A DNA stretch of 64,000 nt from Patescibacteria group bacterium (GTDB lineage: Bacteria > Patescibacteriota > JACPGU01): assembly GCA_022703645.1 (NCBI GenBank), contig JAKLDG010000001.1, positions 733,254 through 797,253 on the forward strand, given 5' to 3'. The translations under genes and the position numbers were made by a program. Below, in pieces: positions 8,628 to 32,618 of the stretch (the stretch's first letter is position 1; each line of letters starts with the position of its first letter). Under the pieces are notes generated by a model. That model was not told the origin of the DNA. It ran no database searches and saw nothing but the letters and a program-made list of their open reading frames with translations.

Positions 8628-8630
8628 TTA

Positions 8631-10850: not shown

Positions 10851-10877
10851 ATTGAGATATTCTACTATTAGATTTGG

Positions 10878-10918: not shown

Positions 10919-10924
10919 TAATGT

Positions 10925-11075: not shown

Positions 11076-11167
11076 TTACTATATATATTGTAGCATACCT
11101 TGTGGTTTGTCTACTTTTGGTTTCTTAGCCTTTTTGCCCTTCCCTTTAGCCTTATATAAATTCTGTC

Positions 11168-13439: not shown

Positions 13440-13455
13440 AATTAATTTGTTAGTT

Positions 13456-14382
13456 TTAAATACTTTCTAATACCTCTTTTACAAGAGGTATTATCTGTTT
13501 GCGCATGAGAATACCTTCTTGCTTAGCAACTCCATTATCAAATCTAACATTTAATGCAATTTCTAAAACTTTTTGCATATCCTCATCAACAGCAAAAAAC
13601 TCATTATATGCGTCAACTAAATCTATAAAAGTTATAAAAACCAAATCTAATGATTCTGATTTTTTTATTTCCTCAAGAGCCTTCTTCAACAACTCCATAT
13701 TTTTTTGAACAAAATCATCAACTCCTACTATTTCTAACTGGGCGATACCAATTGTTTTTCCGTTGAAAGTAAACTTGGCCAAATCATCGATCATGATATC
13801 CTCTAGTGGTCGATCAAATGATGATTTGGCGATAAACATATCGCGAATGAAATTATCTGAAAGTTCAAATTTAGTTTTGAGCCAATCAGCCATTTTGCAA
13901 TCTCTGTCAGTGGTTACTTTAGACTGGAAATTTACGGTGCTAGAAACAATTGCCAAAAAAAGAAGGGTAGCTGACTCTTTAGAAGTATTTAGTCCACTAT
14001 TGTAAAATCTTTCCGCCACTAGAGTTGCGGCTGAACCAACTAATTCAATTTGTATTTTTGCATTGGCAAACTCTGATGCATCGTTTATCTTGCGATGATC
14101 AATAATTTCAATCACTTTTTCAGGATTTATTTTGTTTGATAGTTCATTTAAGTTGCTAGTATCAACAAGGATTATATTGTCTGATTGCTCAATTATGTTT
14201 TCAACGTCATCAAGGGCTGGAATATTAAAAGCATTCGTTACAAATTGAGCTTCTATTTGAGGTATACCAAAAATAGTCGCGGTAGCATCTTTGTTTTCGG
14301 ATCGCAATAATTCAGAATAAGCAAATGCACAAGCAACACCATCCAGGTCGGGGTTTTTGTAAGAAGTTATTATAGTTCTCAT
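13456..14382 (-). CDS. DHH-family phosphoesterase, family II inorganic pyrophosphatase (PpaC)-like
   Basis: Collinear with PpaC: YKNPDLDGVACAFAYSELL, IILVDTSN, IEIIDHRKI and a C-terminal DHHA2-like region. His9 to Tyr and DHH to DHR substitutions. Confidence 0.6.
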   Translation of the reverse strand: MRTIITSYKNPDLDGVACAFAYSELLRSENKDATATIFGIPQIEAQFVTNAFNIPALDDVENIIEQSDNIILVDTSNLNELSNKINPEKVIEIIDHRKINDASEFANAKIQIELVGSAATLVAERFYNSGLNTSKESATLLFLAIVSSTVNFQSKVTTDRDCKMADWLKTKFELSDNFIRDMFIAKSSFDRPLEDIMIDDLAKFTFNGKTIGIAQLEIVGVDDFVQKNMELLKKALEEIKKSESLDLVFITFIDLVDAYNEFFAVDEDMQKVLEIALNVRFDNGVAKQEGILMRKQIIPLVKEVLESI

Positions 14383-14392
14383 TCTTTAAAAA

Positions 14393-15340
14393 TTAAATCT
14401 TTATTTCTCTATTATATATCTTTCCAGAAATTTTATCTAATTTTTTTATTAGAGATATAGCAAAGCTCGGCAAAAAGCTTTTAAAAATCATCAATGAAAA
14501 AATTACATATATTATAGTCAGAAAGTTGTTTGAAAAAATAACCTTTAATAAATGAGGTCTATAATTTAAGAAATAAAAAACAACAAAAACAATGAGGTGG
14601 ATGAAACTATATGAGAATATTGGGACTGGCTCGGTCTTTAATCCAAAGAATTCTACCTCGCTATCTGCAATCTTCATTTGGCTTAATGACTCTTCTGTTT
14701 GACCAAACTTATTTGCAGGATTTTTCTTAAAGGCTTCCTCAAGATATCTTGAAATACGACCATATGGAATTTTCCTGCCAGAAATCAATAAAAGTATCAA
14801 AACTAATAAATTCGCAATCTGCTCAATTAAATATGAGATGAGATTTTTCCATGCTACTTTTGCTCTCAGATACATTCCTCTCCATGTTTTAGTTGGTTTA
14901 ATATGGAGAGAATATATCTCATTTATTATATCGCTACCAGATGCAATCTTGCCTTTTTTATAGAATATATTAGTTTTTAAATCATAAAAATAATCATCTC
15001 TTGATATTAAGTCTATCGGTTTAAATTTCTTCCTCTTTATATATCTGTCATCAATAATATATGTACTATTGTCTTCTCCTACTAGATCAAAGGAAGCTCT
15101 GACCCTTAATGGTACTTTATCACTCTCTAGCCCTACCTTATCATCAGGAAGAATAATATGAATAAGCGTTGTATATTTCTTGCCCTCTAAAATCTTGATT
15201 TTTCTCAGTATCTTTTCATCACAATCTTTTCTAGCACTAAAGCCTATCTTTGTATCATTAAGAAAAACTGGATTGATAAATCCATTGCTTTCTAGCTCAA
15301 AAGAATCTCTAAATTTTTTCCTGATTGCTTCAATGTCCAT
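14393..15340 (-). CDS. Hypothetical protein with C-terminal TM helices
   Basis: 315 aa with no recognisable motifs; hydrophobic C-terminal third. Confidence 0.45.
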   Translation of the reverse strand: MDIEAIRKKFRDSFELESNGFINPVFLNDTKIGFSARKDCDEKILRKIKILEGKKYTTLIHIILPDDKVGLESDKVPLRVRASFDLVGEDNSTYIIDDRYIKRKKFKPIDLISRDDYFYDLKTNIFYKKGKIASGSDIINEIYSLHIKPTKTWRGMYLRAKVAWKNLISYLIEQIANLLVLILLLISGRKIPYGRISRYLEEAFKKNPANKFGQTEESLSQMKIADSEVEFFGLKTEPVPIFSYSFIHLIVFVVFYFLNYRPHLLKVIFSNNFLTIIYVIFSLMIFKSFLPSFAISLIKKLDKISGKIYNREIKI

Positions 15341-15350
15341 AATTATAATT

Positions 15351-16409
15351 TCATTTTATCTGCTTATTAACTAATTTAATAAGATCTTCTTCTCTCTCAT
15401 ATCCCTTAAGTCTCCCTGATAAAATACCAAGCCTATAATTCACACCTTCACTCATTAACTGCCAGTTGGTATTTAAAAGAGTTTTCTTGATCAATTTTTC
15501 TAAGTCCTTTCTACTATTATACTCCTCTCGACCGCTTTTTTCATCCTGAATGGTAAATGAGACTATAACCGTATCGATAATTTCTGTATTTATAAATTTC
15601 AGCTTGTTGTAATTTTCTTTTTTTAATTTCTTGTTTAAAAGGTTTTCGAGGTCGGAAACTTTGAGTTTTTGAAGTTTTGCAACTGCATCGTAGATATGTT
15701 TATTCTTTTCTTTTTCTTTCATCTCTTCTATATCCTTACTAACCGTTGCCATATCCTGTTTGAACTTTATATACTTCCATCCTTCCTCATCGCTAAGACA
15801 ATATTTTTCTTTGTCTTGTAAGTAATCTGAATCCTTCTTATCCGTGTCTTTGTTTTTAATATGAACTGATTCTTTTCTATCACCACAATCAGGACAGCTA
15901 TAAATTGTTTTCATCTTTATTTTGGAATCTTTAAATTCTACATTTAATATTCCTCCGCATTTTTTACAATAATCACTTTTTGCTTCAAATTCTTTGCCAT
16001 CTTCCCAAAAAGCTCTTCGTTTATCACACTTAGGACATTGATAGAAAAATAATACTAAATCGATATCAGCTTTTTCTCGGCTAGACAAATATTTCCTGCC
16101 ATCTTGATCCATTTCGTTTTGGCAAAATAAACAAGGAATTGGGGATGGGGCTTCAGTATCTCTCAATTTATCATCTTTTGCTTTATCCGATTCCATCCAT
16201 TCTGCAATCACAGATTCTTTTCTTACATATCGTTCACCAGTTGTGAAATAGATCCATAGTTTCCAAACATACTTGTGAGCTGAGGCTTTTTCACCAGTAT
16301 ATTCTTTTACCTCTTTTGCAAAATTCTTTTCAATTCTTCTGCATTGCTCAACAGTATGCTCATCATAGAGATCGCTATAGTATATTTTTGGTTTGAGGTA
16401 GGTGATCAT
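15351..16409 (-). CDS. Hypothetical zinc-ribbon protein with coiled-coil C-terminus
   Basis: Multiple CxxC pairs (CLFCQN, CPKCDK, CKKCGG, CPDCGD); Lys/Glu-rich C-terminus. Confidence 0.5.
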   Translation of the reverse strand: MITYLKPKIYYSDLYDEHTVEQCRRIEKNFAKEVKEYTGEKASAHKYVWKLWIYFTTGERYVRKESVIAEWMESDKAKDDKLRDTEAPSPIPCLFCQNEMDQDGRKYLSSREKADIDLVLFFYQCPKCDKRRAFWEDGKEFEAKSDYCKKCGGILNVEFKDSKIKMKTIYSCPDCGDRKESVHIKNKDTDKKDSDYLQDKEKYCLSDEEGWKYIKFKQDMATVSKDIEEMKEKEKNKHIYDAVAKLQKLKVSDLENLLNKKLKKENYNKLKFINTEIIDTVIVSFTIQDEKSGREEYNSRKDLEKLIKKTLLNTNWQLMSEGVNYRLGILSGRLKGYEREEDLIKLVNKQIK

Positions 16410-16420
16410 TTATAAAGAAT

Positions 16421-17083
16421 TTATTTTTTCAATTGTTTTTTATTTTTAAAATAAAGGATTGCTATTGATAGCCACTGTGTTGGCTTTAGACTCCACTTGA
16501 GAAAACTCAAAATAAAAGATAGCGCTAAAACAATCAAGATTGTCCAATTGTTATCAAGGTAATTTAAATGTAATTTACCTATTAAAAATAATACTATTGT
16601 AAAAAATAATGAATTATAAAAAAGAAACAAAACCACTTCACCAACATAGCTAAGTTCTAAATCAGGTTTTTTCTTTTGAACTTGTTCTCTGGCATAATTA
16701 AAATATATTGAAGCATCATTTTTTTCTAATGCCTCTACAGCTTTATCTATACCATTTTTAGACTCTCCTTCGAATGTTTTTTCTGCTCTTATTAGTCGTG
16801 CTTCAGCATCATCAATATATTCTTTTATATATGAAGAAATAAAAATTATAGAAAAAATAGAAAAGGAGAAAGATAGAATAGAAAATTTATTTATACCAAC
16901 GATGTCTAACAGATACGCTATGCTTAAAAAAGCAATTATTATTCCAGCTAAACTTTTAAGAAAATCTAAATGTGACAATGTCGTTTGGTTAACATAATTC
17001 GCCACAAATAAAGAGAAATCATCCTTTGCCTTAAGTAAATCATTTATAGAATTTTCAATTACCTTTCTTTCTTCGTTATTCAT
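16421..17083 (-). CDS. Hypothetical 4-TM membrane protein
   Basis: 220 aa; four hydrophobic helices arranged in two pairs. Confidence 0.45.
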   Translation of the reverse strand: MNNEERKVIENSINDLLKAKDDFSLFVANYVNQTTLSHLDFLKSLAGIIIAFLSIAYLLDIVGINKFSILSFSFSIFSIIFISSYIKEYIDDAEARLIRAEKTFEGESKNGIDKAVEALEKNDASIYFNYAREQVQKKKPDLELSYVGEVVLFLFYNSLFFTIVLFLIGKLHLNYLDNNWTILIVLALSFILSFLKWSLKPTQWLSIAILYFKNKKQLKK

Positions 17084-17109
17084 AATCAGCTTTACTAAGT
17101 TTAATATTA

Positions 17110-17652
17110 TTAACCATTATTGAATCCTATTTTCCCTCTTTCGTCATTAAACTCTATAATCCAAATGACTGCTCGCCCCTTTTTCATCTCAATATAAAAA
17201 GAGTCTATTTTACTTGTTGGTTTAACAATAGGTTGATAAGTAAGTATTTGGCACAATTGATGAAAAAAAGCATACCAGTTATTCTGATCAGAAACTAGTC
17301 TCACCGATACACCATGATCCTTGAAAAGCCCTACCATTTCCCTACCTAGCTCATCTAGCCCAATGAAATTAAGATGTTCGTTTTTATCGATAGCAAGTTC
17401 GGTCTCATTTTTTACTACACTACTATCAATTCGCTCCATAATATCCCGAATATTTTTTGGCTGTTTATTATTCTGCGGATGCAAAACCCAATTACAATAA
17501 AACCACAGGGTATTATATATTTGTTGCTTGCTTTCTGATTCTATTAACTTCCTAATTTCTGCCATCAAATATACTACCTCACACTCTTCCTTAAATGGCA
17601 GGTGTGTATCTATAAAACTTACTAATTTTTCAATAATCTCATTTGTTGCCAT
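17110..17652 (-). CDS. Hypothetical cytosolic protein, 8 nt downstream of the STAND NTPase
   Basis: 180 aa; no recognisable motifs. Confidence 0.45.
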   Translation of the reverse strand: MATNEIIEKLVSFIDTHLPFKEECEVVYLMAEIRKLIESESKQQIYNTLWFYCNWVLHPQNNKQPKNIRDIMERIDSSVVKNETELAIDKNEHLNFIGLDELGREMVGLFKDHGVSVRLVSDQNNWYAFFHQLCQILTYQPIVKPTSKIDSFYIEMKKGRAVIWIIEFNDERGKIGFNNG

Positions 17653-17660: not shown

Positions 17661-20600
17661 TTATAAAACATTCTCCCTTAACATATAACCAATAACTGAA
17701 CCCTTGTTAATTAGGAAATCTAAAAGTACCAAAACATTTTGCTTTAAATCCATTGTTTTCTTTATTTTCTCACGATTTTTATAAACGTATTTTTTGACAA
17801 GATTTTCTAAGTAATAAATTGTATTTACTTCAAATTTTGCCTTTGATAGATTATCGTTATTTTTTAGCATACCAGAAAGCCAAGATATTCCATCGTCTAG
17901 GTAGGGGCTTCCAATATCATTTAGCAATTTTGATATTGCATATAGAGCAGACGAACAGTGACCAAGTTTTTCCGTAATTTCCTTGAAGAAGGCTTTGTTC
18001 TCATCTTTAAGTGTGTGCCACTCAACAACCGACTCTTTCCAAGGATTTTGAGCAAAAAGATAACTTTTTACAACTTTACTAACATACCGATGTCCATCAC
18101 CTTTTTTGCACATATCGATTATTTTTTCTTTAAAAATACCCCAAACTTCCCAAAAATTTTCATAAGAGTTTAAACAATCCTCGGCAGATATAAATTCTTC
18201 GAACAAATCAGCAATTGCTTCTGAACTGTTAAATTTATCAACAAATGGCTTTAGGTATTCCGAAATTTCTTTTTTAGGTGAACTTAAAATAAAATAAGCT
18301 AATTTCTTCAAAAAATCGTGTTTAACTTTATAATCAACTCTATCTTCTCTGTTATTTGAAATAATTTTTTCAGCAAAAGCAGAGATAATCTTTTTAACTA
18401 TTGTTTTATGTTCCTCGCGTTCTGTCTTAAGTGGAATTAGCTGAAAGGCAGTTTTTAATGTATATAGATCTATACTCTCAACGTCTTTTATGTCGCTTAT
18501 CAATAATTGATCGTCTAAAATCTTGTCTAAATCAGCATTACTATCTCTCAAAAATTTCTTCATTATGCCACTGTCTCGTATGTTATATTTGTGCTTTCTG
18601 TAATTTTCTTGGCGGGTTTTTTCTTGTAGTGCGTCAAATTTAGGTTTTAATAATAAATAACCAATTAGAATTGATTGTGCATCCTCAAAAGAAATATCCC
18701 ATAGTTTTTGAATGGCAATAATTGCAAAAGTGTTAAAACCAGTGCCAGCGATATCAATTGGATAGTAATTAAATAGATTAAATATCAACATCTCCTTAAT
18801 ATCTCTTTTTTTATCCGGATGTTTTTCTAGTAAAATTGGCAGTACTGAAATTGCTGATTGTACCCCGTCAGTTGCTCGATATTGATAATTTGGGTCAGAA
18901 GATACAGAGGCCACTTCTATAACCATGCTCGCGCAAAGATCTATTTCTTTTTCTGTGAACTTATCCCAAAAGTCCTTTATCAGTACGGAACAAACCTCTA
19001 CTGGAATAGAATGATTAAGAAGATAAAAACCTTCTTCTTCTGAGTGTTGGGGTTTAAAAGACTCTAGTTTTTTAGATGTTTTTAATTTTGCAATGATTTC
19101 TTTAGCTTCTTTAAGTGCGAGCTTCGGATTATCTTCGTATTGTTTATACTGCTTATAATTTTCATCATTCCTAATTCTGTAATTTACCCATAATTTCAGC
19201 TGAGCGTACTTCATTGGCTCAGAACTTTTTTCTAGTGATTTCTCACTGTATTCTTTTAGCTTCGGATCAATTTTAGGATTAAAACTAATTAAGTACCCAT
19301 CCTCGTTTTTTTCTGAAGCAATATTCATCTTTCTTCTATCCATTCTTGCAAGAAAAAGCCTCCATGTTTTATCAGACTCTGTTTCCACTGATGAATCTGG
19401 TAGTTTTTTATAGTAGTCATCCAATATTTTCCATAATACCTTTTGTCTATTTTTTAAATCTTCTTCATCTATACCTTCACTTCTAAATAATTGGTAATTC
19501 AAGAACAAATTTTCTAAAGACAATTTTCTGTGTTTATCGTCGCAGGCTTGTATTCTTTCTGCTTCATGAAATTCGTTTTTTGAGTTACCGCCACCAAATG
19601 CTTTCAACGATTGAAGCATACCTTTGTGTCCTTGATCTAAAACCAATCTACCTGTATCGCAAAAGAAGAAATCTTTTGTTTTGAAAAGAATTTTAGCGAT
19701 ATTAAAAGTTTTTTCAGGATATGCCAACACGACGCTTGTTACAACTGCCGAGATAGAGGTAGACCTTGAATTTTTAATAAGATGAAACAGCCAGATCTCT
19801 AATGTTTTTGAATCAGCAGCCTTTCCATTTTCAAGGAAAAATTTTTCTAATGCCATATGCATAGATTGCAAAACATATGGCGCTGGTGCCGATGATCCTC
19901 TATACATATTCCAAAGTCTTCCATTTCTGCTGTCGTATTGTTTTATTGTTTTATCTTTTTCAATAAATACCTCAACTTCTTCAACTTCATATTTAGCGAA
20001 TTCAGTTTTAGCAAAGTAATCTACCGATTTATTCGTGAATTTTAAAATAAAGTCTACTGTTTCTTGAAGCGAAGATTGTAGAAGCCAATAAATGGGAGTT
20101 TGATATGAGCTAGCAGGAAAATAATCTAAATGCTCATCTTCCATGTCAAAATGTTCTTCCATACCTATTCCAGGGCGGCTATAGTAACGATCTTCTTTCG
20201 GAGTAAATGACCAAAACAAATCAGCCAGTTGCAATACATACTTGGGAAGAGTTTTGGCAACGGCTACACCTTCAAGCTTCGTTAAAATCATTTCAGACAA
20301 ATCATAGTATGGATCTCTGTGGTTCTTCCACTTATTCTTTACAATTTCTTTAAAAATTTCTTCTAGCTCATTTTTAATTTCAAGGGCGCTATAAAGAGTT
20401 GTCTGCAATAAGTTGTTTTTTGTACCATCGTCAGAAATAAAAATATTTTCTTTTATAGTCCATTGATAGTACTTTAATGCAATTAAACCAGAATATTTTG
20501 TAGTTTCTCCCTCCTTAAATTTACTAGTCCAATCATGAATTATTGGCAAAATGAAATGGATGTTTTGATTACCTAACTTATCAAAATTCTCAAAAACAAA

Positions 20601-22481
20601 TTTTATAAGACATTCCCACCCTTGTCCTTTTGGCTTCGTTAAAACGTACTTTAAAGAAAAAATATTTAAGTTTTTAACTCCCAACTGTTTAAAAAAGTCG
20701 TTGTCCACTTCCTTGCAAGCAATTCTTAGTAGAAAAAATATTCTATGCAATAAACTCTCCTCGTATTTATAGTCAACGGTTACAGACTGAACAACCTTAG
20801 AAGAATTGTTATATTTAACGACTTTTTCAGGCACACCCAATAATTCATTTTTGAAAAAATCAAAAAACACACAAGAGAAATCCGAAAGTAAAACAGAGAC
20901 TAGTATCTCATCCTTCCAGAATGATTCTATATTTTTGTTTTTTATAGCTTGTTTGATTAACTCCTTTATCTCCTTACTTTGTAATAATAATTTTTCAGAT
21001 ACCCACTTTCTGAATGCTCGACGTAAAGGCAGTGAGCTACCTATACTCTGAAAGAAAGTCTTAATATCAGTTTTTTTAACAAATTCTACTTCAATATTTT
21101 TTTCTAATGCCCATTCTTCATAAATATCGTGCGTAATAAAATATCCATGCGGTGATTCATATCCTAAAATCCCATCCTTTTTTAATTCATCCAAGATACC
21201 TGATTCACAAGCGGGAATAATAAAAAATTGTCCATCAGTTGCTCTTTGGAATGCCATTTTCAAAAAACATTGTTCTCTTGTAGGTTTAGATTTAATAATT
21301 ACTTTGCTCCATAATTTATCTTTAAATTCTGTATAGTTGGTTTGTTCTCCTTCTTTATAAAACTTTAAATATTCATTTAGGTAAAATGGATTTCTGATAA
21401 GGTCTACTAATCTTTCATCATTGGGAAGTACAAAACTATATGTACCGGAAAGAGAGCTTAATTCCGTTAAGTCTAAATTCTGAATGTTTATATTTAGGGG
21501 TGCAATTTTATATATCTCGAAAAATTGATAGTTTAAATCTTCTAAGTAATTATCTCTGGTTGTAAAAATAACTTTCCAGTTTTCCTTTACTAAAATAGAT
21601 AAAAACTCCTTAAAAGGATCCGTGTTTTTTAAATCTAGCAACTTCTCCGCAGAATCAATCACAATAATTTTATCTGCTTCCTCTTTTTGCCCATCCAAAA
21701 AATCTTGGAAACTATAACCTCTAAAAAATTCACTTATATTTCTTAATTCAAACTCAGTTGCCTTAAAAAGATAGAAAGGTGTCTTATCTTTTGTTTTCTC
21801 ATAAAAATCTTTGATGAGTGCTGTTTTCCCGACTCCACCAACACCACTTAGAATCAATACTTTTTCTTGGCTGATTTTTATTTTTTCTAAATCATCGCTC
21901 CTGTCTATCTTGATGTTTTGATTGTTGAAAGTAATAGCGGTTTGTATCTCATTCAAAATATTTTCGGAATGAGCCTGTTGGTTTTTTATCAGGTCAAAGA
22001 TACTTTTATCTAAACTGAAAAAATGTTTAGTTATAATTTCATTGTCTGTAGAAACAAACGGGGATTCAAAATAGCTAGCCATATTCCATACCAATTTAAT
22101 CCCAAGTTCATTCGCTTTTTTCTTAACATCTGTTTTTCCTTGTGGCTCTTTACCTTTATTTTGACCCCATTCTTGATTGGTATAAAAAACAAACTTTGTA
22201 ATATCAGGATAATCTCTTTTAGTCTTTTCGAGAGCATTAATAATATCAGTCTTACATGTAGTCTTTGATAAAGAATCACCATAAAATTTAGCTTGCCATC
22301 CGATTATTTCTTCTCCCTCTTTAATTGGATCATTTTCTATACCAGATTGATTTTTATAACGAAATATACCGGTATCTTTTTTATATTCTCTACAAAATAA
22401 TAAATAGCAAAACCACTCAAAATTACTTTGAGGATTTTCACTAAATTTTGCTTCGAATACAGGCCAGTTAGGTTTAATCAT
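17661..22481 (-). CDS. Giant STAND (NB-ARC-like) NTPase with N-terminal Mrr-like PD-(D/E)xK nuclease motif and ~1,300-aa helical C-terminal region; Avs4-like antiviral ATPase architecture
   Basis: Walker A GVGGVGKT, Walker B KIIVIDSAE and hhhhTTR motif KVIFTTRD. N-terminal ...NDPIKEGEEIIGWQAKFY resembles the Mrr_cat D...QxK motif. 1606 aa. Confidence 0.55.
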   Translation of the reverse strand: MIKPNWPVFEAKFSENPQSNFEWFCYLLFCREYKKDTGIFRYKNQSGIENDPIKEGEEIIGWQAKFYGDSLSKTTCKTDIINALEKTKRDYPDITKFVFYTNQEWGQNKGKEPQGKTDVKKKANELGIKLVWNMASYFESPFVSTDNEIITKHFFSLDKSIFDLIKNQQAHSENILNEIQTAITFNNQNIKIDRSDDLEKIKISQEKVLILSGVGGVGKTALIKDFYEKTKDKTPFYLFKATEFELRNISEFFRGYSFQDFLDGQKEEADKIIVIDSAEKLLDLKNTDPFKEFLSILVKENWKVIFTTRDNYLEDLNYQFFEIYKIAPLNINIQNLDLTELSSLSGTYSFVLPNDERLVDLIRNPFYLNEYLKFYKEGEQTNYTEFKDKLWSKVIIKSKPTREQCFLKMAFQRATDGQFFIIPACESGILDELKKDGILGYESPHGYFITHDIYEEWALEKNIEVEFVKKTDIKTFFQSIGSSLPLRRAFRKWVSEKLLLQSKEIKELIKQAIKNKNIESFWKDEILVSVLLSDFSCVFFDFFKNELLGVPEKVVKYNNSSKVVQSVTVDYKYEESLLHRIFFLLRIACKEVDNDFFKQLGVKNLNIFSLKYVLTKPKGQGWECLIKFVFENFDKLGNQNIHFILPIIHDWTSKFKEGETTKYSGLIALKYYQWTIKENIFISDDGTKNNLLQTTLYSALEIKNELEEIFKEIVKNKWKNHRDPYYDLSEMILTKLEGVAVAKTLPKYVLQLADLFWSFTPKEDRYYSRPGIGMEEHFDMEDEHLDYFPASSYQTPIYWLLQSSLQETVDFILKFTNKSVDYFAKTEFAKYEVEEVEVFIEKDKTIKQYDSRNGRLWNMYRGSSAPAPYVLQSMHMALEKFFLENGKAADSKTLEIWLFHLIKNSRSTSISAVVTSVVLAYPEKTFNIAKILFKTKDFFFCDTGRLVLDQGHKGMLQSLKAFGGGNSKNEFHEAERIQACDDKHRKLSLENLFLNYQLFRSEGIDEEDLKNRQKVLWKILDDYYKKLPDSSVETESDKTWRLFLARMDRRKMNIASEKNEDGYLISFNPKIDPKLKEYSEKSLEKSSEPMKYAQLKLWVNYRIRNDENYKQYKQYEDNPKLALKEAKEIIAKLKTSKKLESFKPQHSEEEGFYLLNHSIPVEVCSVLIKDFWDKFTEKEIDLCASMVIEVASVSSDPNYQYRATDGVQSAISVLPILLEKHPDKKRDIKEMLIFNLFNYYPIDIAGTGFNTFAIIAIQKLWDISFEDAQSILIGYLLLKPKFDALQEKTRQENYRKHKYNIRDSGIMKKFLRDSNADLDKILDDQLLISDIKDVESIDLYTLKTAFQLIPLKTEREEHKTIVKKIISAFAEKIISNNREDRVDYKVKHDFLKKLAYFILSSPKKEISEYLKPFVDKFNSSEAIADLFEEFISAEDCLNSYENFWEVWGIFKEKIIDMCKKGDGHRYVSKVVKSYLFAQNPWKESVVEWHTLKDENKAFFKEITEKLGHCSSALYAISKLLNDIGSPYLDDGISWLSGMLKNNDNLSKAKFEVNTIYYLENLVKKYVYKNREKIKKTMDLKQNVLVLLDFLINKGSVIGYMLRENVL

Positions 22482-22564
22482 ATTCGTATTAATCCTAAAT
22501 GAGTGTTCATGAAATAATATTATGTTCTGCAGACTATTATACTGATTTTATCATAAAAAATGCC

Positions 22565-22600
22565 CAAAAACAATTAAAAGAGAGGCTATCAAAGCCTCTT
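22565..22600 (-). terminator. Terminator hairpin (agaggct...agcctct) after the beta-class MTase gene
   Basis: 7-bp inverted repeat followed by a T-run on the minus strand. Confidence 0.45.
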
Positions 22601-22621: not shown

Positions 22622-23392
22622 TTAAATATGCAATCTTAATTTAGAAAGTTTTGCGAAGGTCTCATTCTTCTCAATCCCAATCCAGTCTCTTCCTAACTTC
22701 TTTGCTACAAAAGCAGTTGTTCCACTCCCCAAGAATGGGTCGAGTACCATGTCTCCCTTGTTTGATGAAGCTATAATAACTCTTCGTAGAAGTTCTTCGG
22801 GTTTTTGAGTTGGGTGTGCAGCTCTGCCATTTGCGCCTCTCAATCTTTCTTTGCCTTGCACCAAGGGTAGTTGCCAAACATCTCTCATTTGTTTTATTGA
22901 GCCATCTTTTTGTTTATCAGGATTTATTTTTTTCAAATCTTCATAATTAAATTTCCAATTTTTACCTTTCACCGCCCAAACAATAAATTCTATTGAATGA
23001 GTAAAAACTCTCTTTGTCATATTAGGCATGGCATTTGTTTTTTGCCAGATTATAACATTGTTGATTTTGAAACCTAGTTTTTTTAGAACCATCATAATTT
23101 CAGCTAAGTTATGATGTGTGCAGGATACATAGATTGATCCATTATCTTTAAGGGCTTGATGACAACCAGCAATCCAATCATTTGTAAATTGCAGATATTC
23201 CTTATCGGTCATTTTATCCCAATCTTCATTTACCATATACCAATCACCACCAGTCTTATTTCCTTTCCACTTCAAAGCATTGCCAGATAAATTATATGGT
23301 GGGTCTGCAAAAACTAAATCGATTGACTTCGCGTCAATCTTTTTATTTAGAATTTCTATGCAATCACCTTGATATATAATATTCTTTTTCAT
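22622..23392 (-). CDS. Beta-class N6-adenine/N4-cytosine DNA methyltransferase (DpnA/M.PvuII-like)
   Basis: Motif [13 protein letters not shown] precedes motif [14 protein letters not shown]. 256 aa. Confidence 0.8.
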
Positions 23393-23394
23393 TT

Positions 23395-25227
23395 TTATGC
23401 TTTAGATAAAATAGATTTTTGCCAACTATTTATAACTTGTGGAATCTCTTCTAGCCATTCCTCGGAGTTACTAACCCTTCCTGTTATTTCGACTACATCA
23501 TTATACAATTCAAGTAATTCAGAATGTTTGAATAATTTTCCGCTCTCTTTTACTTTCAATAAAGTGTCTAACATTTTTACAAGTTGATTTATGGATAAAG
23601 GAATGATTCTTTGTTCTGTTCCTTTATATCCATATTTGATGGCCATCCAAAAAGTTTCAACCGTATCTTGATGCAATTTAGGAGCAATAAACAAACAGTA
23701 AGTATTTTTATTAGAATGACTATTTTCAAAATCTCTTAGGTGTCTCATTACTGGTTGTCCTTCGTTATACCACTGATCACGACTCACCAACATAGTAACT
23801 TCACAAACAGAATTAAACTTTTCATAAAAACATTCTATATCGGGCTTATTTGCTGGAGCAGTAAATGTCGGCTCATTGTCATCACCAACCGGATAATTGG
23901 GTTTTATGTCTATAGCATCGTTTAAAGCATTCAATGCTAAGGTAGCCAATCTCTCCAACTCAATACTCTTTTTAGATTCAGATTGATAGATGTTTTTTAA
24001 TAGATCTATATACTCCCTAACTTTATCCAAGTCTTGGGACTCATCATGAATTTCTATGTTTTGTAATTCTCTTCGATATAATCTTAGATCTTCAATATAC
24101 TTTTTGAGCTGATCGATATTTAATACACCGATGTCTTTGAAACTAAAGATAGGTACTTTCGCTCCCTCGCTCACTAAAGCATCAAGATATTCTTTATTGT
24201 CTCTTTCCAATTTAGTTGCAATCTTTATCAAGTTATCTTCTGTTTCCCACGGCAATGTTGGTTCATTAATGTCAGAAATATAAGAAAGATATTTCTCAAC
24301 ATTCTCAAATACAATTGGTGAGGCATTATCTGATTTTAGTAATGCCTTTATTTCAATTTCTCTCCTCGGCTCTAGATCAATATGAAATCCTCCGCCTCTT
24401 ATATGAATATATCTTGTCAAACGAAAATACCTAATCGCATTATCGCCATAATCTTTGAGATTATTTAGCAATAGCTCAACCTCTCTTACACTTTTTGTTT
24501 TGAGAAACTTTTTGGCAAAATTCTTTTTATATTTTTCTCGATATTTTCTTTTTTCCTTCTCGTCTTTTATTTTTCTTAGTCCATCTCTAAAATCGACTAC
24601 CGCATCCGCTTGCTTTCCGATGTTTTTATGATCTATCAATGTTGGCACAAAAAGAGAAAACTCTTCCTTGGTAATCCCAACTGGTTTATTGCCAAGAGAT
24701 TCCCATCTTTTATTTACCTCATTGATAAGATGTAGTGTTCCCACAAAGGGCTTTATATTAAATCCATCATCTTCAGAAAATGTTTTACTATCAGGATTTG
24801 GTAATTGCCATTTCAAAAAGTGAATAAAAAATACATTTCCCAGATCATAGTCTTCAGATAATAATAATTTCCCCAAAGATGTTATCTTAATTTGCTCGGC
24901 AGAATTTTTAGCAATGCAAAACCCCATCTTATTTAATGGAGCCACAGAATTTCTTCCCCTCATTGCAGGATCTTCATAATGTTGGTTATGAAAAATTCTT
25001 TCGGCTACTGCAAAAGGCATTTCTTTTTCTATATCGTCAAAATAACTCTCTTGCTCTTTGGTTAGGTCGGTTGGTTTATATAACTTATTTTTTATTAATA
25101 GAATCTGATATTTAATTTGATTTTCTGATCCAAAAGATTCCCCTTCTGATTCTTTGAGTACTTTAAGAAAACCCCGTAAACGCTCGGGGTTTCTAACTGT
25201 TGTTGATATTGACCACGGTTTTTTCAT
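23395..25227 (-). CDS. Putative type IIS restriction endonuclease, AlwI/BstNBI/PleI family
   Basis: 610 aa between two MTase genes. N-terminal [13 protein letters not shown]...LKVL and [12 protein letters not shown], and C-terminal YCLFIAP...RIIPLS, resemble N.BstNBI-family enzymes as recalled from memory. Confidence 0.5.
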
Positions 25228-25229
25228 AG

Positions 25230-26393
25230 TTAATTATTAACCTTACAATAAAATACTCTCTCGGTATGCCCGTCAGTTTCACTTCTGCCAGTAGAAAATG
25301 CCCTGTAGTCTCTTTCGAATACTTCAACCTCGCCCTTCTTTTTTAATATGTTCACAATTTCACTATCCTTAATTCTTGAATTAGATCTCCCGTCTTTTTT
25401 CTCACCAGTGTTATTGTAGGAAACTAAAATGTGTTTACAGTTTGCATTCTCTATTAAATCTTCAAATGCTTTTTTAGCACTCTTTAAACAATACTGGCTT
25501 TTCAAGTGTGTCCGATCCATTTTCTTCGCCTTGCCAAACACTTCTGGCTTTCCCCATTCAACAAGGTTTTCTAATAAATGATAAGAGTCGCAATATTGAC
25601 GTGAATTATATGGTGGATCCATATATAATACATCGCATTTTATTTTTCTTATAAGTGTATTTGCATCTTCTCTATAAACCTCGTTATTGGTATTATTTTC
25701 CAAATTGATAGTTGGCGCCAAAAGCTCTAACGGATTAATACTATCAAGATTTTTTCTATATGCATCATAATGGCCTACAGTGTTGGCAACTTTATCTGCT
25801 GCATATATCAACGATGTTATTAAGGCAAACTTCTCCTCATCGCTTTCAGCTATTGACTCTATTTTCTCTCTTATAGCACCAATCTTTTTTGCATTTTCTA
25901 TAGTGAAATAAGTGCCACCATAATATTTTGAGAAATAGTTATCATCATTGGACTTAATGCTATTTAAAAGATTGATCTTTTTCTTTAAACCATCAATATT
26001 CACATTTTTTGCGTCAAGGAATGTCTTTAGCGGAAGGTAATTGCTAAGCAGAATGTCATTACTAATAACCTTTATATTCTTATCATTAAATCCCTCTCCA
26101 ACGACTCCTGTTCCTGCAAAGATATCACAAAATGATGTGATTTCCCCGCACTTCTCGTTTACAATATCTTTTATAAAGTTTATCAGTTTAAATTTGTTAC
26201 CTAGATACCTTCTATTCTGAATTTGAAATTTGCCCTCAATGTTTTGTGTCTTGGGATAAAAATATACCTTTTCAATTTTGCTCACCTCTAAGGTAGCTTC
26301 ATTTGCCCTTTCTTTACCAAAAAAGTCAAAGCCAAAAAGAGGGGCTTGAATGGCAGTAGATAAATTTGTATGTTTGTTTTGAAGTTGAGACAT
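25230..26393 (-). CDS. Alpha-class (Dam-like, D12) N6-adenine DNA methyltransferase
   Basis: Motif I DIFAGTGVVG precedes motif IV LYMDPPYNS. Confidence 0.8.
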   Translation of the reverse strand: MSQLQNKHTNLSTAIQAPLFGFDFFGKERANEATLEVSKIEKVYFYPKTQNIEGKFQIQNRRYLGNKFKLINFIKDIVNEKCGEITSFCDIFAGTGVVGEGFNDKNIKVISNDILLSNYLPLKTFLDAKNVNIDGLKKKINLLNSIKSNDDNYFSKYYGGTYFTIENAKKIGAIREKIESIAESDEEKFALITSLIYAADKVANTVGHYDAYRKNLDSINPLELLAPTINLENNTNNEVYREDANTLIRKIKCDVLYMDPPYNSRQYCDSYHLLENLVEWGKPEVFGKAKKMDRTHLKSQYCLKSAKKAFEDLIENANCKHILVSYNNTGEKKDGRSNSRIKDSEIVNILKKKGEVEVFERDYRAFSTGRSETDGHTERVFYCKVNN

Positions 26394-26665: not shown

Positions 26666-27184
26666 TTAATTATAGCTATCAATTATCTTGTCACCATCTC
26701 TATCATAGAAACAAGAGGGACTATAACTACGCCAACACCATTGCAATTGAGTCCCGCTACCATAATTTGATGGATTAATAGAGTCGGGTTGGCTACCATA
26801 CGATTCAACAAGCATATCATAACTCATGCCAACCCATATCTTCCCATTTGCAACACCTTCGCATTCTTCAACGGTCCATAAAGGGTGCTGTTTCCAGATT
26901 TGGCCAGCTCTTGAATTTTGCCATTCTGGATCAGCTAATTTTTGAGCCGTAGCTTCGGCCCTCTCCTCTTTAGCCTTCTCAACTTGTTCGCTCTGCTCCT
27001 TAACAGCTTCATTCCAGCTATTATTAGCCATTATCATTGGGATCGTGATTATAGCTATCACCACCACCAGTGCAATCCAACATCCTTTCTTTTTTGACTT
27101 CGCACCTTTTAAAGATGATTTACAGTGTTTGCAAAACTGGGCATCATCTTGTATCTCCTCTGCACATTTTGGACACTTCTTCAT
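26666..27184 (-). CDS. Zinc-ribbon membrane protein (N-terminal CPKC...CKHC, single TM, extracytoplasmic Trp/Cys-rich domain)
   Basis: MKKCPKCAEEIQDDAQFCKHCK followed by TM segment IALVVVIAIITIPMIM. Confidence 0.5.
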   Translation of the reverse strand: MKKCPKCAEEIQDDAQFCKHCKSSLKGAKSKKKGCWIALVVVIAIITIPMIMANNSWNEAVKEQSEQVEKAKEERAEATAQKLADPEWQNSRAGQIWKQHPLWTVEECEGVANGKIWVGMSYDMLVESYGSQPDSINPSNYGSGTQLQWCWRSYSPSCFYDRDGDKIIDSYN

Positions 27185-27370
27185 AAATTCTCCTTTCTAA
27201 TAAAAAACACCGCAAAAATATGCGGTATTTAATACTAAGATTATTATTGCTAAATTTTATATTACATTTTTGTAACATGATCCTTGGTCGGTTTTTATAT
27301 TTTTTAGTGGAAAACACAAAGCTCCCCACCAGCGATGGCTTGCGCCACCCACACCCCTTTCGAGGCATGA

Positions 27371-27420
27371 CCGACCAAGGTGCTCTGATGGAGAGCTTTC
27401 TACCTTGGTCGGATTTTTTG
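27371..27420 (+). terminator. Strong intrinsic terminator: 11-bp stem ccgaccaaggt/accttggtcgg with nested 5-bp hairpin, followed by TTTTTT
   Basis: Perfect inverted repeat plus T-run on the plus strand. The preceding ~80 nt are GC-rich. Confidence 0.65.
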
Positions 27421-27561
27421 CCATATCCTACAGATGTAATGCAGGGGTTAGGCAACTAAATTGTTAGCATCATTTTAGCATGCAAAACCGTTAAAGTAAA
27501 GCTATTAATCCCCGTATCGACTCACATTTATATACATCACAAATCAGGGATTAACAACAAT

Positions 27562-27764: not shown

Positions 27765-29123
27765 ATGTTAAAAGAAAATCAGTTAAAAGTAATTCAAGTT
27801 CCCATCAAAGAACTTAAACCATCTGAATATAATCCAAGAAGATGGTCGGCTGATGCTATCAAACAGCTTAAGGATAGCATAACAAGATTTGGGCTAGTGG
27901 ATCCAATCATAGTAAACATTGCGCAAGGACGAGAACAAATCGTAATTGGGGGCCACTTTAGATTAAAGGTCGCCAAAGATTTAGGATTTCACGAAGTACC
28001 GGTTGTGTATCTCGATATCCCAGACGTTGAGAAAGAAAAAGAATTAAACATCAGATTAAACAAAAATCTGGGTGAATTCGATTTCGATCTTCTAAAAAGT
28101 TTCGGAGAAGATTTTCTATCAGACCTTGGATTTTCATCCGAAGATTTGGATAGAATATTTGAGGTTGAGGACACGCCGGAAATGTTTGATTTAGAAAAAG
28201 AATTAAAAAAGCTGGATATTAAGAACATTGAAATCCAAAAAGGAGATCTCTGGGATCTTGGCGGAAGCAGAATGTATTGTGGAGACTCTACAATAGAAGA
28301 AGATATGCTAGCGCTGATGGGGAAAGAAAAAGCAGATATGGTTTTGACGGATCCGCCATATATTCTTGATTATCTAAAGGGAAAGAAAAAACATGGCAAA
28401 GCAATTGAAGGGTTCGGATATAAAAGAGACAGAAAATATCTTGAAACAGACTTTTTGCCTGAAGACTTTACGGAAAAATGGATGACTAACGTTCACAAAG
28501 TTCAAAAAGATGATTTTCACATCATTGTTTATGAGAACTGGAAAAACATTCGAACCATATGGAATGAGATGGAAAAATACTGGAAGGTAAAGAATATGAT
28601 TGTTTGGCACCTGCCAAATCGTGTTCAAAATTTCTCATCAAAATATAAGCTCTTTAACAAGCATGACATAGCAATGGTTGGTACCAATAAGGACTTGGGA
28701 TTTAATTTTGAGCAAGAGAACAGGGAATTGCAAAATGAATATGAAACAGCTCTTTACGCGATAAGCGGAAAACCAGCTTGGGAATCATACGAAAAAGGAA
28801 AGAAATATTGCCCAACTGATTTTATCGAATTTAATGCTGCTGATGAGAAAAGTTCGGGCCAAGGAATTATATTTGGCACGAAACCAACAGAGATATTGAT
28901 TCCATATATAAAAATACTGACCAAAAGAAATGATTTAATTTTAGAACCGTTTGGTGGTAGCGGTAGCACTTTAATAGCGGCAACAAAAATGAAGCGTCGA
29001 TGCTATCTTATGGAAAAATCACCGATATATGCGGAAGTAATTAGAAAGCGCTGGGAAAATCTAACAGGCCAGAAAGCTAAACTGATCTCAAAAAAGGAGG
29101 TGAAGGATGATAAACAAAAGTAA
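27765..29123 (+). CDS. ParB-like nuclease domain fused to beta-class DNA methyltransferase
   Basis: N-terminal ParB-N motif (KPSEYNPRRWS...GGHFRL). MTase motif IV VLTDPPYIL and motif I EPFGGSGSTLIAA. RBS AAGGAGG. Confidence 0.8.
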   Translation: MLKENQLKVIQVPIKELKPSEYNPRRWSADAIKQLKDSITRFGLVDPIIVNIAQGREQIVIGGHFRLKVAKDLGFHEVPVVYLDIPDVEKEKELNIRLNKNLGEFDFDLLKSFGEDFLSDLGFSSEDLDRIFEVEDTPEMFDLEKELKKLDIKNIEIQKGDLWDLGGSRMYCGDSTIEEDMLALMGKEKADMVLTDPPYILDYLKGKKKHGKAIEGFGYKRDRKYLETDFLPEDFTEKWMTNVHKVQKDDFHIIVYENWKNIRTIWNEMEKYWKVKNMIVWHLPNRVQNFSSKYKLFNKHDIAMVGTNKDLGFNFEQENRELQNEYETALYAISGKPAWESYEKGKKYCPTDFIEFNAADEKSSGQGIIFGTKPTEILIPYIKILTKRNDLILEPFGGSGSTLIAATKMKRRCYLMEKSPIYAEVIRKRWENLTGQKAKLISKKEVKDDKQK

Positions 29124-29538
29124 GGTTCAGAAAACATTATTGGAACAACTTTCCAAAATGCCAATTATCCAAGTAGCCTGCGACAAAAGTGGCGTAAGCA
29201 GGGCTACATTCTACAGAATGTGCAAAGAGAGTAAGAAGTTCAAGGGAAATACAGATAAAGCCATTCAACAAGGAAGGCTCCTTATAAATGATATGGCTGA
29301 AACGCAGATCATATCAGCGATTAAAGATCGGAATATAACAGGGCTGATTTATTGGTTAAACCACAATCATCCATTGTATAAGACTAGGATAGAAATTGAG
29401 GCTAACCACAAAATCAATAATGGAAAAATCAGTAAGGAACAGGAGGCTTTAATAAAGAAAGCCATAGGATTAATGATCCCCAATAATAGCAAAAAGGGAT
29501 CAGCCCAAGACAATATTCCAATAAAAGACAATGAGTAA
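29107..29538 (+). CDS. HTH protein, putative terminase small subunit
   Basis: 143 aa with an HTH (VACDKSGVSRATFYRMCKES). Its stop overlaps the start of the large terminase gene. Confidence 0.45.
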   Translation: MINKSKVQKTLLEQLSKMPIIQVACDKSGVSRATFYRMCKESKKFKGNTDKAIQQGRLLINDMAETQIISAIKDRNITGLIYWLNHNHPLYKTRIEIEANHKINNGKISKEQEALIKKAIGLMIPNNSKKGSAQDNIPIKDNE

Positions 29539-31102
29539 AAGATTGAATTACAGAAACAACATTATAGACAATAAAACCATGAAACGCATTACTGAGGACC
29601 CAATTTTTAGAGCAGAATTGTGTCGCAAAAGTTTCAAATGGTTTTTTATTGTTTATTTTGCAGATTACATAGAATACCCAATAGCAGAATTTCATAACGA
29701 ATTATTCGAAATTGCGGAAAATGAAAAAATAAAAACCGCAGTGATTACCGCCTTCAGGTCATCGGCAAAAAGCACAATTCTTACTGTGGCTTATGCAATA
29801 TGGGCAATTCTTGGACAACAAAATAGAAAGTTTGTTGTACTTGTAAGCCAAACCCAAGAACAGGTTCGTGTTCACTTCAAAAATATCAAGAGAGCATTGG
29901 AATCTAACACTCTTTTGAAAGAAGATTTGGGACCATTTGAAGAAGATGAGTGGAATTCCGCTTCGATAGTAATAACCAAACTGAATGCAAGGATTACCGC
30001 TCTATCTTCTGAACAAAGCTTCCGAGGCGCGATCCATGGGCATACTCGCCCCCAATTAATCCTGTGCGATGATATAGAGGATACCACCTCAGTAAAAACT
30101 AGAGAGGGACGGGATAAAATATATAAATGGTTCAATAGCGAAATCATGCCTTTGGGGGATCAAAATACCAGGACAATAGTATTTGGTAATTTAACCCACG
30201 AAGATTGTCTATTGATGAGATTAAAGAAAGAAATAGAAAGTGGTGAAAGATCAGGAATTTACCGAGAATACCCCATGATCGATGAAAATGGTAAAATCCT
30301 TTGGCCGGGCAAATACCCAAGCGAAGAAGCAATTGAAGAAGAAAGAAAAAAAATGGATAAATTCTCTTTTGCTAGAGAATTCATGCTCCAAATAATCGAT
30401 GATCGAGAAGCCGTAATAAACAAAGAGGACATCCATTATTATGCTGGCAAAATCCCAGAGCCACTGAGAAATCAATCATGGAGTTATGTCACTGGGATAG
30501 ACTTAGCAATCTCGCAAAAGGATAGCGCTGATTGTACAGCGATGGTAACCATGAAAATAATCGGCGAAGACGAAAAGATGCGAATATATGTTTTACCGCA
30601 TCCTATCAATGATAGGTTAACTTTTTCACAAATATTAGAAACTGGAGTTACTCTTTCTCAAAGTTTGGGCGGGAGAGGTAATAATCTATATTGCGTGGAA
30701 GAAGTGATGCTGCAAGGCTATCTAACTCAACACTTCAAAGATAATAATCTTAACGCAGAGGGAGTTAAGATAAGTGGTATGGACAAAAGAACCCGACTTA
30801 TAATGACATCTGATTGGATAAGAAAAGGAATTATTCTGTTCCCAGAAAGAGGCGCAGAAGATTTGATAAAACAAATCTTGGGTTTTGGGGTTGAAAAGCA
30901 TGATGACTTGGTGGATTCTTTTACTATCGCTATCTTAAGAACGATTAATAATCCTCCGGAAGAAATTATTTCTTTAGCTTTTTGTCGTTCATCAGATGAA
31001 ACTGACGGTCATGGTTCCATACCTGAGGGGTATCATTATAGTAAACACACTGTGCTTAGAGGCGATGATTTTGTAACAGAATATCGCCTTACACCAAATT
31101 AA
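29531..31102 (+). CDS. Phage terminase large subunit
   Basis: Walker A AFRSSAKST, Walker B LILCDDIED and a C-terminal RNaseH-like nuclease region with conserved Asp residues. Confidence 0.8.
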   Translation: MSKRLNYRNNIIDNKTMKRITEDPIFRAELCRKSFKWFFIVYFADYIEYPIAEFHNELFEIAENEKIKTAVITAFRSSAKSTILTVAYAIWAILGQQNRKFVVLVSQTQEQVRVHFKNIKRALESNTLLKEDLGPFEEDEWNSASIVITKLNARITALSSEQSFRGAIHGHTRPQLILCDDIEDTTSVKTREGRDKIYKWFNSEIMPLGDQNTRTIVFGNLTHEDCLLMRLKKEIESGERSGIYREYPMIDENGKILWPGKYPSEEAIEEERKKMDKFSFAREFMLQIIDDREAVINKEDIHYYAGKIPEPLRNQSWSYVTGIDLAISQKDSADCTAMVTMKIIGEDEKMRIYVLPHPINDRLTFSQILETGVTLSQSLGGRGNNLYCVEEVMLQGYLTQHFKDNNLNAEGVKISGMDKRTRLIMTSDWIRKGIILFPERGAEDLIKQILGFGVEKHDDLVDSFTIAILRTINNPPEEIISLAFCRSSDETDGHGSIPEGYHYSKHTVLRGDDFVTEYRLTPN

Positions 31103-31211
31103 AAGGGAGTTTTTAGGGCTTTTTGAAAAAGAGTTGTCTACAGCTTTAAGTCTGGACTTACTTACCCCTTAGCGGTACTCTCCTTACTACTATACTAGTA
31201 ACAAGGAATAT

Positions 31212-32618
31212 ATGGGTAAAATAAGTGGCAATTTAGTGAGCCCAGTAAGAGAAACTGGGAGCCAAAACTGGGTCAGTTTTGAGCAGGATACTAAGGTGAG
31301 GTACTGCCTCTACGCTAGAAAATCAACAGAAGATGATGAGAGGCAGGCATTATCTATTGATTCCCAGATCAAAGAGATGCTGGAATCAGCCCAAAGAGAA
31401 GGGCTGGAGGTGGTGGATGTAAGGCGAGAGTCCCACTCCGCTAAGAGTTCGGGATGCAGGCCAGTATTCAACCAAATACTGATTGATATTAAGGCCGGAT
31501 TGTTTAATGGAATTTTAAGCTGGGCACCGGACAGGTTAAGCAGAAATGCCGGAGATTTGGGAACCGTCGTAGATCTTATGGATCAGGGACATCTGAAACA
31601 GATTAAAACTAACGGTCAATCCTTCACCAATTCTCCTAATGAGAAGTTCATGCTAATGATCCTCTGCTCTCAGGCAAAGCTAGAAAATGATAATAAAGGT
31701 GAGAATGTAAAAAGAGGATTGAGGGCTAAATGTGAGCTGGGTTATCGCCCAGGGATGACCCCCCTCGGATATCTTAATGAATATATCGGGATCAAGGGAA
31801 AAATGAAGATCTTCCTTGATCCCGTTCGGGCTCCCATTATTAGAGAGATGTTTGAAAAAGTAGCTTATGAGAACTGGAGCGGTAGAGATCTGTATAGATG
31901 GCTCGTAGATGAAAAAGATTTTAAGACCAGGACAGGTCATCGATTTACTATTAGTGGAATATTGAGAACGCTTGGGACACCGTTTTATTATGGAGAGTTT
32001 GAGTATCCTGAGGGATCAGGCAACTGGTACAAAGGAGCTCATGAACCATTGATAACCAAGGAATTATTCGAAAAGGTGAGAGCCAATATGGCAGTAGCAC
32101 CCAAGGCAAGACCTGGATTAAAGGAATTTGAATTTACAAAACTAATCAAATGCGGAACCTGCGGTAGAACTATCATTGCAGATGAGAGATTCAGAAAATT
32201 AAAAGATGGGGGTATGAATAGACATGTCTACTATCACTGCACTCAGAAGATCGAACGAGAATGTCATGAACCACCTATCGGCGAAGAAGAATTGATAGAA
32301 CAGATGGTAAAGCTGATTGATAAAATGAATTTTAGAAAAAGAAGTATCAGTGATAGAATCAAAAACGAAATACTGAAATACAATAGGTTTTCTGAAGTGC
32401 TCTTCGGAAATCAATACCTGGAAAAAGAAAAAGTTAAATCAGACCAGCAAAATATTAGGGCGTACGCCAAGTACGTCCTCCGAGAAGGAACAAAGGATGA
32501 GAAAAGGGAATTACTAACAGATCTAAAAACAAAATTGGTACTACATAATAAGCAGATATCATTAGAGGATGAGAAAATCATAAATAGCGTAAATAAGCCA
32601 GAAATTGACAAACAATAA
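31212..32618 (+). CDS. Large serine recombinase (phage-type serine integrase)
   Basis: Resolvase-like catalytic domain YARKSTEDDERQALSIDSQ. Recombinase domain and zinc ribbon CGTCGRT...YYHC. Confidence 0.85.
   Translation: MGKISGNLVSPVRETGSQNWVSFEQDTKVRYCLYARKSTEDDERQALSIDSQIKEMLESAQREGLEVVDVRRESHSAKSSGCRPVFNQILIDIKAGLFNGILSWAPDRLSRNAGDLGTVVDLMDQGHLKQIKTNGQSFTNSPNEKFMLMILCSQAKLENDNKGENVKRGLRAKCELGYRPGMTPLGYLNEYIGIKGKMKIFLDPVRAPIIREMFEKVAYENWSGRDLYRWLVDEKDFKTRTGHRFTISGILRTLGTPFYYGEFEYPEGSGNWYKGAHEPLITKELFEKVRANMAVAPKARPGLKEFEFTKLIKCGTCGRTIIADERFRKLKDGGMNRHVYYHCTQKIERECHEPPIGEEELIEQMVKLIDKMNFRKRSISDRIKNEILKYNRFSEVLFGNQYLEKEKVKSDQQNIRAYAKYVLREGTKDEKRELLTDLKTKLVLHNKQISLEDEKIINSVNKPEIDKQ

Follow-up and report, generated by a model that had tools for sequence, protein, structure and literature searches.

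An Avs4-family, predicted antiviral STAND NTPase carried as cargo of a probable phage-derived integrative element in a Patescibacteria group bacterium

We investigated a stretch of 64,000 nucleotides (hereafter the window; contig JAKLDG010000001.1 of assembly GCA_022703645.1, positions 733,254 to 797,253) from a Patescibacteria group bacterium, and in particular a single giant open reading frame (ORF) within it that encodes an Avs4 (AVAST type 4) protein, a predicted antiviral STAND NTPase. A sequence-only reading of the same DNA had placed a 1606-amino acid ORF at 17661-22481 in what it took for a genome resembling those of the candidate phyla radiation (CPR); the ORF is present as placed, on the minus strand, which that reading had left unstated, and the source organism bears out the guess about the genome. 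The deposited product (HRY59901.1) is annotated there only as 'ATP-binding protein'. The gene has a guanine-plus-cytosine (GC) content of 0.31, against 0.345 for the whole window, and because 4.8 kb remain open in DNA of 31% GC the ORF is not a chance product. Homology of the encoded protein extends from residue 1 to residue 1606. The gene, its predicted domains and its upstream signals are arranged as follows, EcAvs4 being the Avs4 protein of E. coli.

17661..22481, minus strand: Avs4 gene, 1606 amino acids, intact, ATG start
21987..22481, minus strand: predicted N-terminal Mrr-like PD-(D/E)xK nuclease effector domain, residues 1 to ~165; E22, E49, Q63 and K65 conserved
21072..21884, minus strand: predicted STAND NTPase module, residues ~200-470; Walker A G213-T220 (K219), Walker B D276/E279, TTR T307/R309
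17664..21071, minus strand: C-terminal sensor region (residues 471-1606), with homology along its entire length to the part of EcAvs4 that binds the portal; ligand binding predicted
20769..20837, minus strand: 23-amino acid insertion VPEKVVKYNNSSKVVQSVTVDYK, residues 549-571; specific to a CPR Avs4 clade
22536..22599, minus strand: intergenic signals 5' of Avs4; hairpin at 22581-22599 after a methylase gene, TATAAT at 22536-22541

All four motifs quoted in the sequence-only reading occur in the ORF: GVGGVGKT at residues 213-220, IIVIDSAE at 272-279, VIFTTRD at 304-310 and NDPIKEGEEIIGWQAKFY at 50-67. Upstream, the TATAAT box lies 55 nt ahead of the Avs4 ATG, and the terminator-like hairpin separates Avs4 from the methylase gene of a restriction-modification (R-M) system. 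Together, the hairpin and the box suggest that Avs4 may form its own transcription unit, transcribed separately from the R-M genes.

Family membership was evaluated with profile and sequence comparisons. The PADLOC Avs4 model matched residues 1-1606 with a score of 2259.9 bits, and the NCBIfam equivalog NF041815.1 ('AVAST type 4 anti-phage nuclease Avs4') matched residues 5-1606 over profile positions 1-1579 with 2106.1 bits, compared with a cutoff of 1500. The sole PDB sequence matched by the window protein was 8DGF chain A (EcAvs4), aligned end to end with 1829 bits. We rebuilt the EcAvs4 sequence from the 8DGF alignments and compared it by BLASTP; the alignment, of 1633 columns, showed 52% identity. 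The nuclease was the most similar region (63%), followed by the NTPase (60%) and the sensor (51-52%, residues 471-1606), and sensor residues 867-1606 align continuously with EcAvs4 858-1587 (809.7 bits). Furthermore, a profile built from 24 N-terminal domains matched residues 1-190 of 8DGF (E 1e-71), and nothing else among the PDB sequences, its caspase and kinase matches (E > 0.07) being noise. These results place the protein, as judged by its sequence, in Avs4 and in no other family, in agreement with the Avs4-like identity proposed earlier.

Two sister families were ruled out: the PADLOC Avs2 model scored 13.7 bits, on the Walker A stretch only, and SeAvs3 (PDB 8DGC) was absent among the PDB matches. 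Around the P-loop, the Pfam matches were all below threshold (AAA_14, 24.4 bits, and nSTAND3, 22.5 bits, both narrowly; NB-ARC, 15.8 bits). The 'NB-ARC-type' label given to the core in the sequence-only reading could not be upheld, since the NB-ARC family (PF00931) has a cutoff of 23.5 bits and matched residues 205-232 (the P-loop) only, below AAA_14 and nSTAND3. By these scores the window protein classifies as a STAND NTPase of the Avs type and not as an NB-ARC member in the Pfam sense. A megablast search against all complete E. coli genomes found no DNA-level match; the gene is therefore not a recent enterobacterial transfer.

Conservation of the active sites was determined in an alignment of 30 full-length homologues (the window protein, 28 proteins from genome contigs and EcAvs4). 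In the NTPase, G213, G216, G218, K219, T220, D276, E279, T307 and R309 were invariant in all 30 proteins. In the nuclease domain, E22 and K65 were likewise invariant (30/30), E49 was present in 29 of 30, and position 63 was Q in 25 homologues and E in four. Of the D...QxK nuclease signature proposed earlier, the QxK part stands, with Q63 and K65 aligning with Q63 and K65 of EcAvs4; the aspartate does not, position 51 being N in 17 of the 30 homologues, EcAvs4 included. The acid paired with QxK is E49, in an 'SGIE' motif, together with E22. EcAvs4 is reportedly inactivated by the Q63A/K65A substitution.

Compared over its full length, the window protein shares with EcAvs4 the order of Mrr-like nuclease, STAND NTPase and long sensor, with identical residues at Q63/K65, the Walker A lysine and the Walker B aspartate. 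EcAvs4 has a 19-amino acid insertion in its nuclease domain (about residues 115-133) that is missing from the window protein, which in turn has two insertions relative to EcAvs4, the 23-amino acid one at 549-571 and one of 11 amino acids near residue 1135. The hosts also differ, an enterobacterium in one case and a Patescibacteria bacterium (contig ~0.87 Mb) in the other. Avs2 and SeAvs3 resemble Avs4 in their N-terminal nuclease effector, in STAND tetramerisation on ligand and in being single-gene defence systems; unlike the window protein they belong to different families and take terminase as their ligand, and the SeAvs3 nuclease is of the Cap4 type.

Considering the full-length Avs4 matches, the conserved catalytic residues, the intact frame and the defence context described below, we regard it as very likely that the gene encodes a functional single-protein Avs4 antiviral STAND NTPase of Patescibacteria. 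In the literature, 8DGF is the 'EcAvs4-Mrr-portal' complex, and Avs4 is described as being activated by phage portal proteins and as forming tetramers that activate the N-terminal Mrr nuclease. By homology with EcAvs4, the C-terminal sensor would bind the portal protein when a tailed phage infects the cell, after which the ATP-bound STAND modules would tetramerise and bring the Mrr-like PD-(D/E)xK nuclease domains together; these would degrade double-stranded DNA indiscriminately, so that the infection is aborted. We infer portal sensing, tetramerisation and DNA cleavage in the Patescibacteria host from this precedent.

The sequence-only reading had also described a neighbouring R-M system and an integrative element, as in a defence island, and the surrounding genes agree with this, the integrative element being a probable one:

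22622..26393, minus strand: predicted AlwI-family type IIS R-M system, three genes, directly upstream of Avs4
22622-23392, minus strand: N6_N4 methyltransferase (Pfam N6_N4_Mtase, E 4.8e-63)
23395-25227, minus strand: AlwI restriction endonuclease (RE_AlwI, E 1.4e-87; NCBI name 'AlwI family type II restriction endonuclease')
25230-26393, minus strand: D12/Dam-class methyltransferase (MethyltransfD12, E 3.9e-31)
27334..27454, minus strand: LOOT RNA (Rfam RF03000, 98.5 bits), separating defence cargo from phage-derived module
27765..32618, plus strand: phage-derived module of four genes, divergent from the Avs4/R-M cargo
27765-29123, plus strand: ParB-DNA methylase
29107-29538, plus strand: TerS-like gene, weak TerS match
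29531-31102, plus strand: terminase large subunit (TerL; phrog_38, E 6.3e-76)
31212-32618, plus strand: large serine integrase (a large serine recombinase; phrog_95, E 1.3e-60), directly after TerL
15351..17652, minus strand: three unannotated genes downstream of Avs4 (180, 220 and 352 amino acids), the first beginning 8 bp past the Avs4 stop

From their domain matches, the three R-M genes are predicted to make up a complete type IIS AlwI-family system, with the endonuclease flanked by methyltransferases. A zinc-ribbon gene and the LOOT RNA lie between this system and the divergent phage-derived module; an ORF at 27144-27455 that overlaps the LOOT RNA is probably spurious. LOOT RNAs were also found in related elements, namely in two CPR metagenome-assembled genomes (MAGs; L003, 6047-6168, and L025, 1509-1641) and in one IMG/VR contig (L054, 5676-5810), and this recurrence suggests that the motif belongs to the mobile-element family. 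No portal or capsid gene follows TerL or occurs anywhere in the window, and the module might represent what is left of a prophage, or else a satellite-like element, in CPR bacteria. The element was recognised by its gene content, and no att sites marking its boundaries were found; long direct repeats are not left behind by large serine integrases. As in known prophage- and mobile-element-borne defence islands, Avs4 and R-M genes share a variable slot that adjoins genes for an integrase and a terminase; in this carrier, unlike those islands, the large serine integrase comes straight after TerL, the window lacks portal and capsid genes, and a LOOT RNA is present.

Downstream of Avs4, the three genes are followed by a fourth (315 amino acids), giving a four-gene stretch at 14393-17652 on the minus strand, in which two proteins have 3-4 predicted transmembrane segments. 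None of the four had a significant Pfam or PADLOC match, and the first two had no PHROG match either; the 352-amino acid protein gave one sub-threshold Pfam match, to HypA, and has homologues on the cargo side of one viral contig (L060) and on another (L049). We rejected these genes as parts of the Avs4 system, as they have no PADLOC matches and are not conserved beside Avs4 elsewhere. The first three are probably further cargo of the same element, and the four together may be uncharacterised cargo or defence genes.

We examined the recurrence of this arrangement on viral contigs. An IMG/VR scan with the window TerL recovered 26 viral contigs (L043-L068), which were then searched by tblastn with the other module genes: the ParB-methylase gave 24 matches on these contigs (best matches 63-69% identity), the TerS-like gene 20 (41-46%) and the serine integrase 19 (about 50%). 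On several of the 26 contigs the integrase comes directly after TerL, as in the window, with no portal or capsid gene between them. One of them (L052; IMGVR_UViG_3300009873_002614, 1-14847) carries an MmeI-type R-M gene, a DEAD/ResIII helicase, a T5orf172 protein and Avs4 on one strand, divergent from the ParB-methylase, TerS, TerL and serine recombinase, which is the layout of the window; its Avs4, partial at the sequence end, is 48.6% identical to the window protein. Scanning the IMG/VR viral contigs with the single Avs4 protein returned nothing, and scanning them with an Avs4 alignment returned only one contig (L070, 291-8476), where a full-length Avs4 (41% identity) stands beside HK97-type capsid and prohead protease genes.

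Parts of the phage-derived module also adjoin Avs4 in three CPR MAGs. In Magasanikbacteria (L003) and Saccharibacteria (L025), Avs4 is divergent from a ParB-methylase, with no R-M system identified, and in Staskawiczbacteria (L019) it lies between two serine recombinases. At two further loci (L028 and L017), methylase-containing gene pairs stand immediately upstream of Avs4. These results indicate that Avs4 is cargo in a variable slot for defence genes, within what is probably a phage-derived integrative element found commonly in CPR.

The spread of Avs4 was investigated with one scan of species-representative genomes, which yielded 42 related loci. Published papers credit Patescibacteria with very few known defence systems, and our literature search found no paper joining Avs/AVAST to Patescibacteria or CPR. 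The earlier description of such proteins as rare in CPR fits this literature but not the sequence data: seven of the 42 loci are in CPR-labelled MAGs, and Avs4 is accordingly not rare in CPR. The seven loci closest to the window protein (69-90% identical) comprise five with CPR labels, namely Saccharibacteria (L025, 90%, partial sequence; L001, 77%), Magasanikbacteria (L003, 87%), Staskawiczbacteria (L019, 78%) and Vogelbacteria (L028, 76%), together with one labelled Gammaproteobacteria (L002, 77%) and one unclassified bin (L004, 69%). In a neighbour-joining tree, the window protein and six of these seven formed one tight cluster, the fragmented Staskawiczbacteria copy being left out. The 23-amino acid insertion is present in the window protein and at all seven of these loci, and is missing in EcAvs4 and in all 22 remaining full-length homologues of the alignment.

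Sensor identity inside this CPR clade is 71-72%. The GC content of the Avs4 genes is 0.31-0.33, compared with 0.345-0.468 for their flanks (window and six of the seven loci; L025 excluded), and this uniformity whatever the GC content of the flanks points to recent horizontal spread among CPR lineages. The Avs4 proteins of Gracilibacteria (L010) and of a further Saccharibacteria locus (L017) fall elsewhere in the tree, outside the window cluster, so Avs4 was acquired by CPR more than once. It is possible, though we hold the proposal only tentatively, that a CPR-restricted Avs4 lineage, marked by the 23-amino acid insertion and ~32% GC, has been passed between distant Patescibacteria classes by the phage-derived element, its portal sensor serving to exclude competing CPR phages.

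Some of these copies are interrupted. Under translation table 11, the Magasanikbacteria gene (L003, 10001-14822) is split into two pieces and the Staskawiczbacteria gene (L019, 9974-14823) into four, and these splits point to frameshifts, as pseudogenes or assembly errors; the Gracilibacteria gene (L010, 10001-14761) is also split, as expected from genetic code 25. On the contig labelled 'uncultured Gammaproteobacteria' (L002, CAZEKG010000003.1), the recombinase and its counterpart on a Saccharibacteria contig share 88% identity, and flanking genes match those of the window at 49-58%. Because this locus combines the CPR-clade insertion with flanks matching both the window and the Saccharibacteria contig, its taxonomic label is doubtful and probably wrong.

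Several observations weigh against a functional, portal-sensing Avs4. Pfam recognised neither Mrr_cat nor any other nuclease family in residues 1-200 at E <= 1, and it detected no TPR or SLR repeats in the 1,300 amino acids at the C-terminus, the stretches for which the sequence-only reading had described an Mrr-like motif and helical repeats, respectively; both the Mrr-like label of the nuclease domain and the repeat assignment consequently rest on homology with EcAvs4. A single-sequence AlphaFold2 model of the N-terminal domain had a predicted local distance difference test (pLDDT) score of 50, too low for fold comparison. No CPR phage portal gene was identified for comparison. In addition, the sensor shares only about 51% of its residues with the EcAvs4 sensor, and the clade-specific insertion lies near the NTPase/sensor junction, so ligand specificity could differ. 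The main rival explanation builds on this last point and holds that the sensor has been retargeted, either to a non-portal phage protein or only to CPR-phage portals by a different binding mode, with effector activation otherwise unchanged. The sensor is the least conserved part of the protein, both towards EcAvs4 and inside the CPR clade, the insertion is unique to that clade, and targets have diversified widely in other Avs families; against this, homology with EcAvs4 runs unbroken through the entire sensor, where many residues are invariant and no domain replacement is seen, and the insertion near residue 550 marks the start of the sensor, outside its bulk. We give retargeting a small, though real, chance.

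Explanations by decay or by misassembly are unlikely. The gene could be a leftover from a transferred element, decaying or without function, that gives the cell no immunity, as the absence of structural genes beside TerL and the broken copies in two related CPR genomes (L003 and L019) might suggest; here, however, the frame is complete, its start being the homologue of EcAvs4 M1 and its end the homologous C-terminus, all catalytic and nucleotide-binding residues are kept, and a 4.8-kb frame in AT-rich DNA would close without selection, which makes decay quite improbable. The idea that the gene came from a non-CPR organism through an assembly or binning artefact draws on the MAG origin of the contig and on the close homologue labelled Gammaproteobacteria, the label of which is itself the doubtful one given that its flanks match the window and a Saccharibacteria contig. 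The gene lies inside a contig of 867,473 bp, nine neighbouring proteins (including RpoD, DnaG, FtsK, pyruvate kinase and pyrophosphatase) are also recorded as Patescibacteria, its GC content of 0.31 fits the 0.345 of the window, and its closest homologues occur in Magasanikbacteria, Saccharibacteria, Staskawiczbacteria and Vogelbacteria MAGs; an artefact is accordingly the least probable explanation of all, and hardly credible.

Read as a functional Avs4, the protein is a new, unannotated member of the family in an under-studied phylum. Family, architecture and mechanism were previously known, standard defence-annotation models detect the protein at once, and nothing new about mechanism follows from it; what is gained in practice is an annotation that improves on the deposited one, together with a candidate for heterologous study. 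A complete Avs4 would mean that NLR-type pattern-recognition immunity operates, or at least is maintained, in ultra-small episymbionts. The copy retains its catalytic residues, occupies 0.55% of the 867-kb contig and has close relatives in several CPR classes. Its presence would also imply that tailed phages whose portals can be recognised exert selective pressure. Of mild interest is the setting, with a CPR subclade marked by an insertion, spread within CPR and a carrier element with a LOOT RNA, while the kind of system is ordinary. If true, a CPR-restricted Avs4 lineage on a phage-derived element would offer a tractable entry to the almost unknown biology of CPR phages and their hosts.

Other features of the window were also observed. 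A stand-alone nucleotide cyclase is encoded at 10089-10850 on the minus strand (Pfam Guanylate_cyc, 1.5e-26), with weak matches to Pycsar PycC (best E 2.3e-10) and no recognised Pycsar effector adjoining it; its upstream neighbour (11168-12049) has one N-terminal transmembrane segment and no family match. Just beyond the integrase, 32661-35677 encodes two paralogous secreted proteins (377 and 410 amino acids) with similar N-terminal regions, the second with a chagasin-type peptidase inhibitor domain, and a ricin-type lectin, all of which are probably CPR surface or host-interaction proteins. Finally, a tRNA-Ile with anticodon UAU was found at 61367-61439 on the plus strand (77 bits, Rfam), next to two tRNA-Met(CAU) genes at 62053-62204. 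Such a tRNA-Ile(UAU) is unusual in bacteria, where AUA is normally decoded by a lysidine-modified CAU tRNA.

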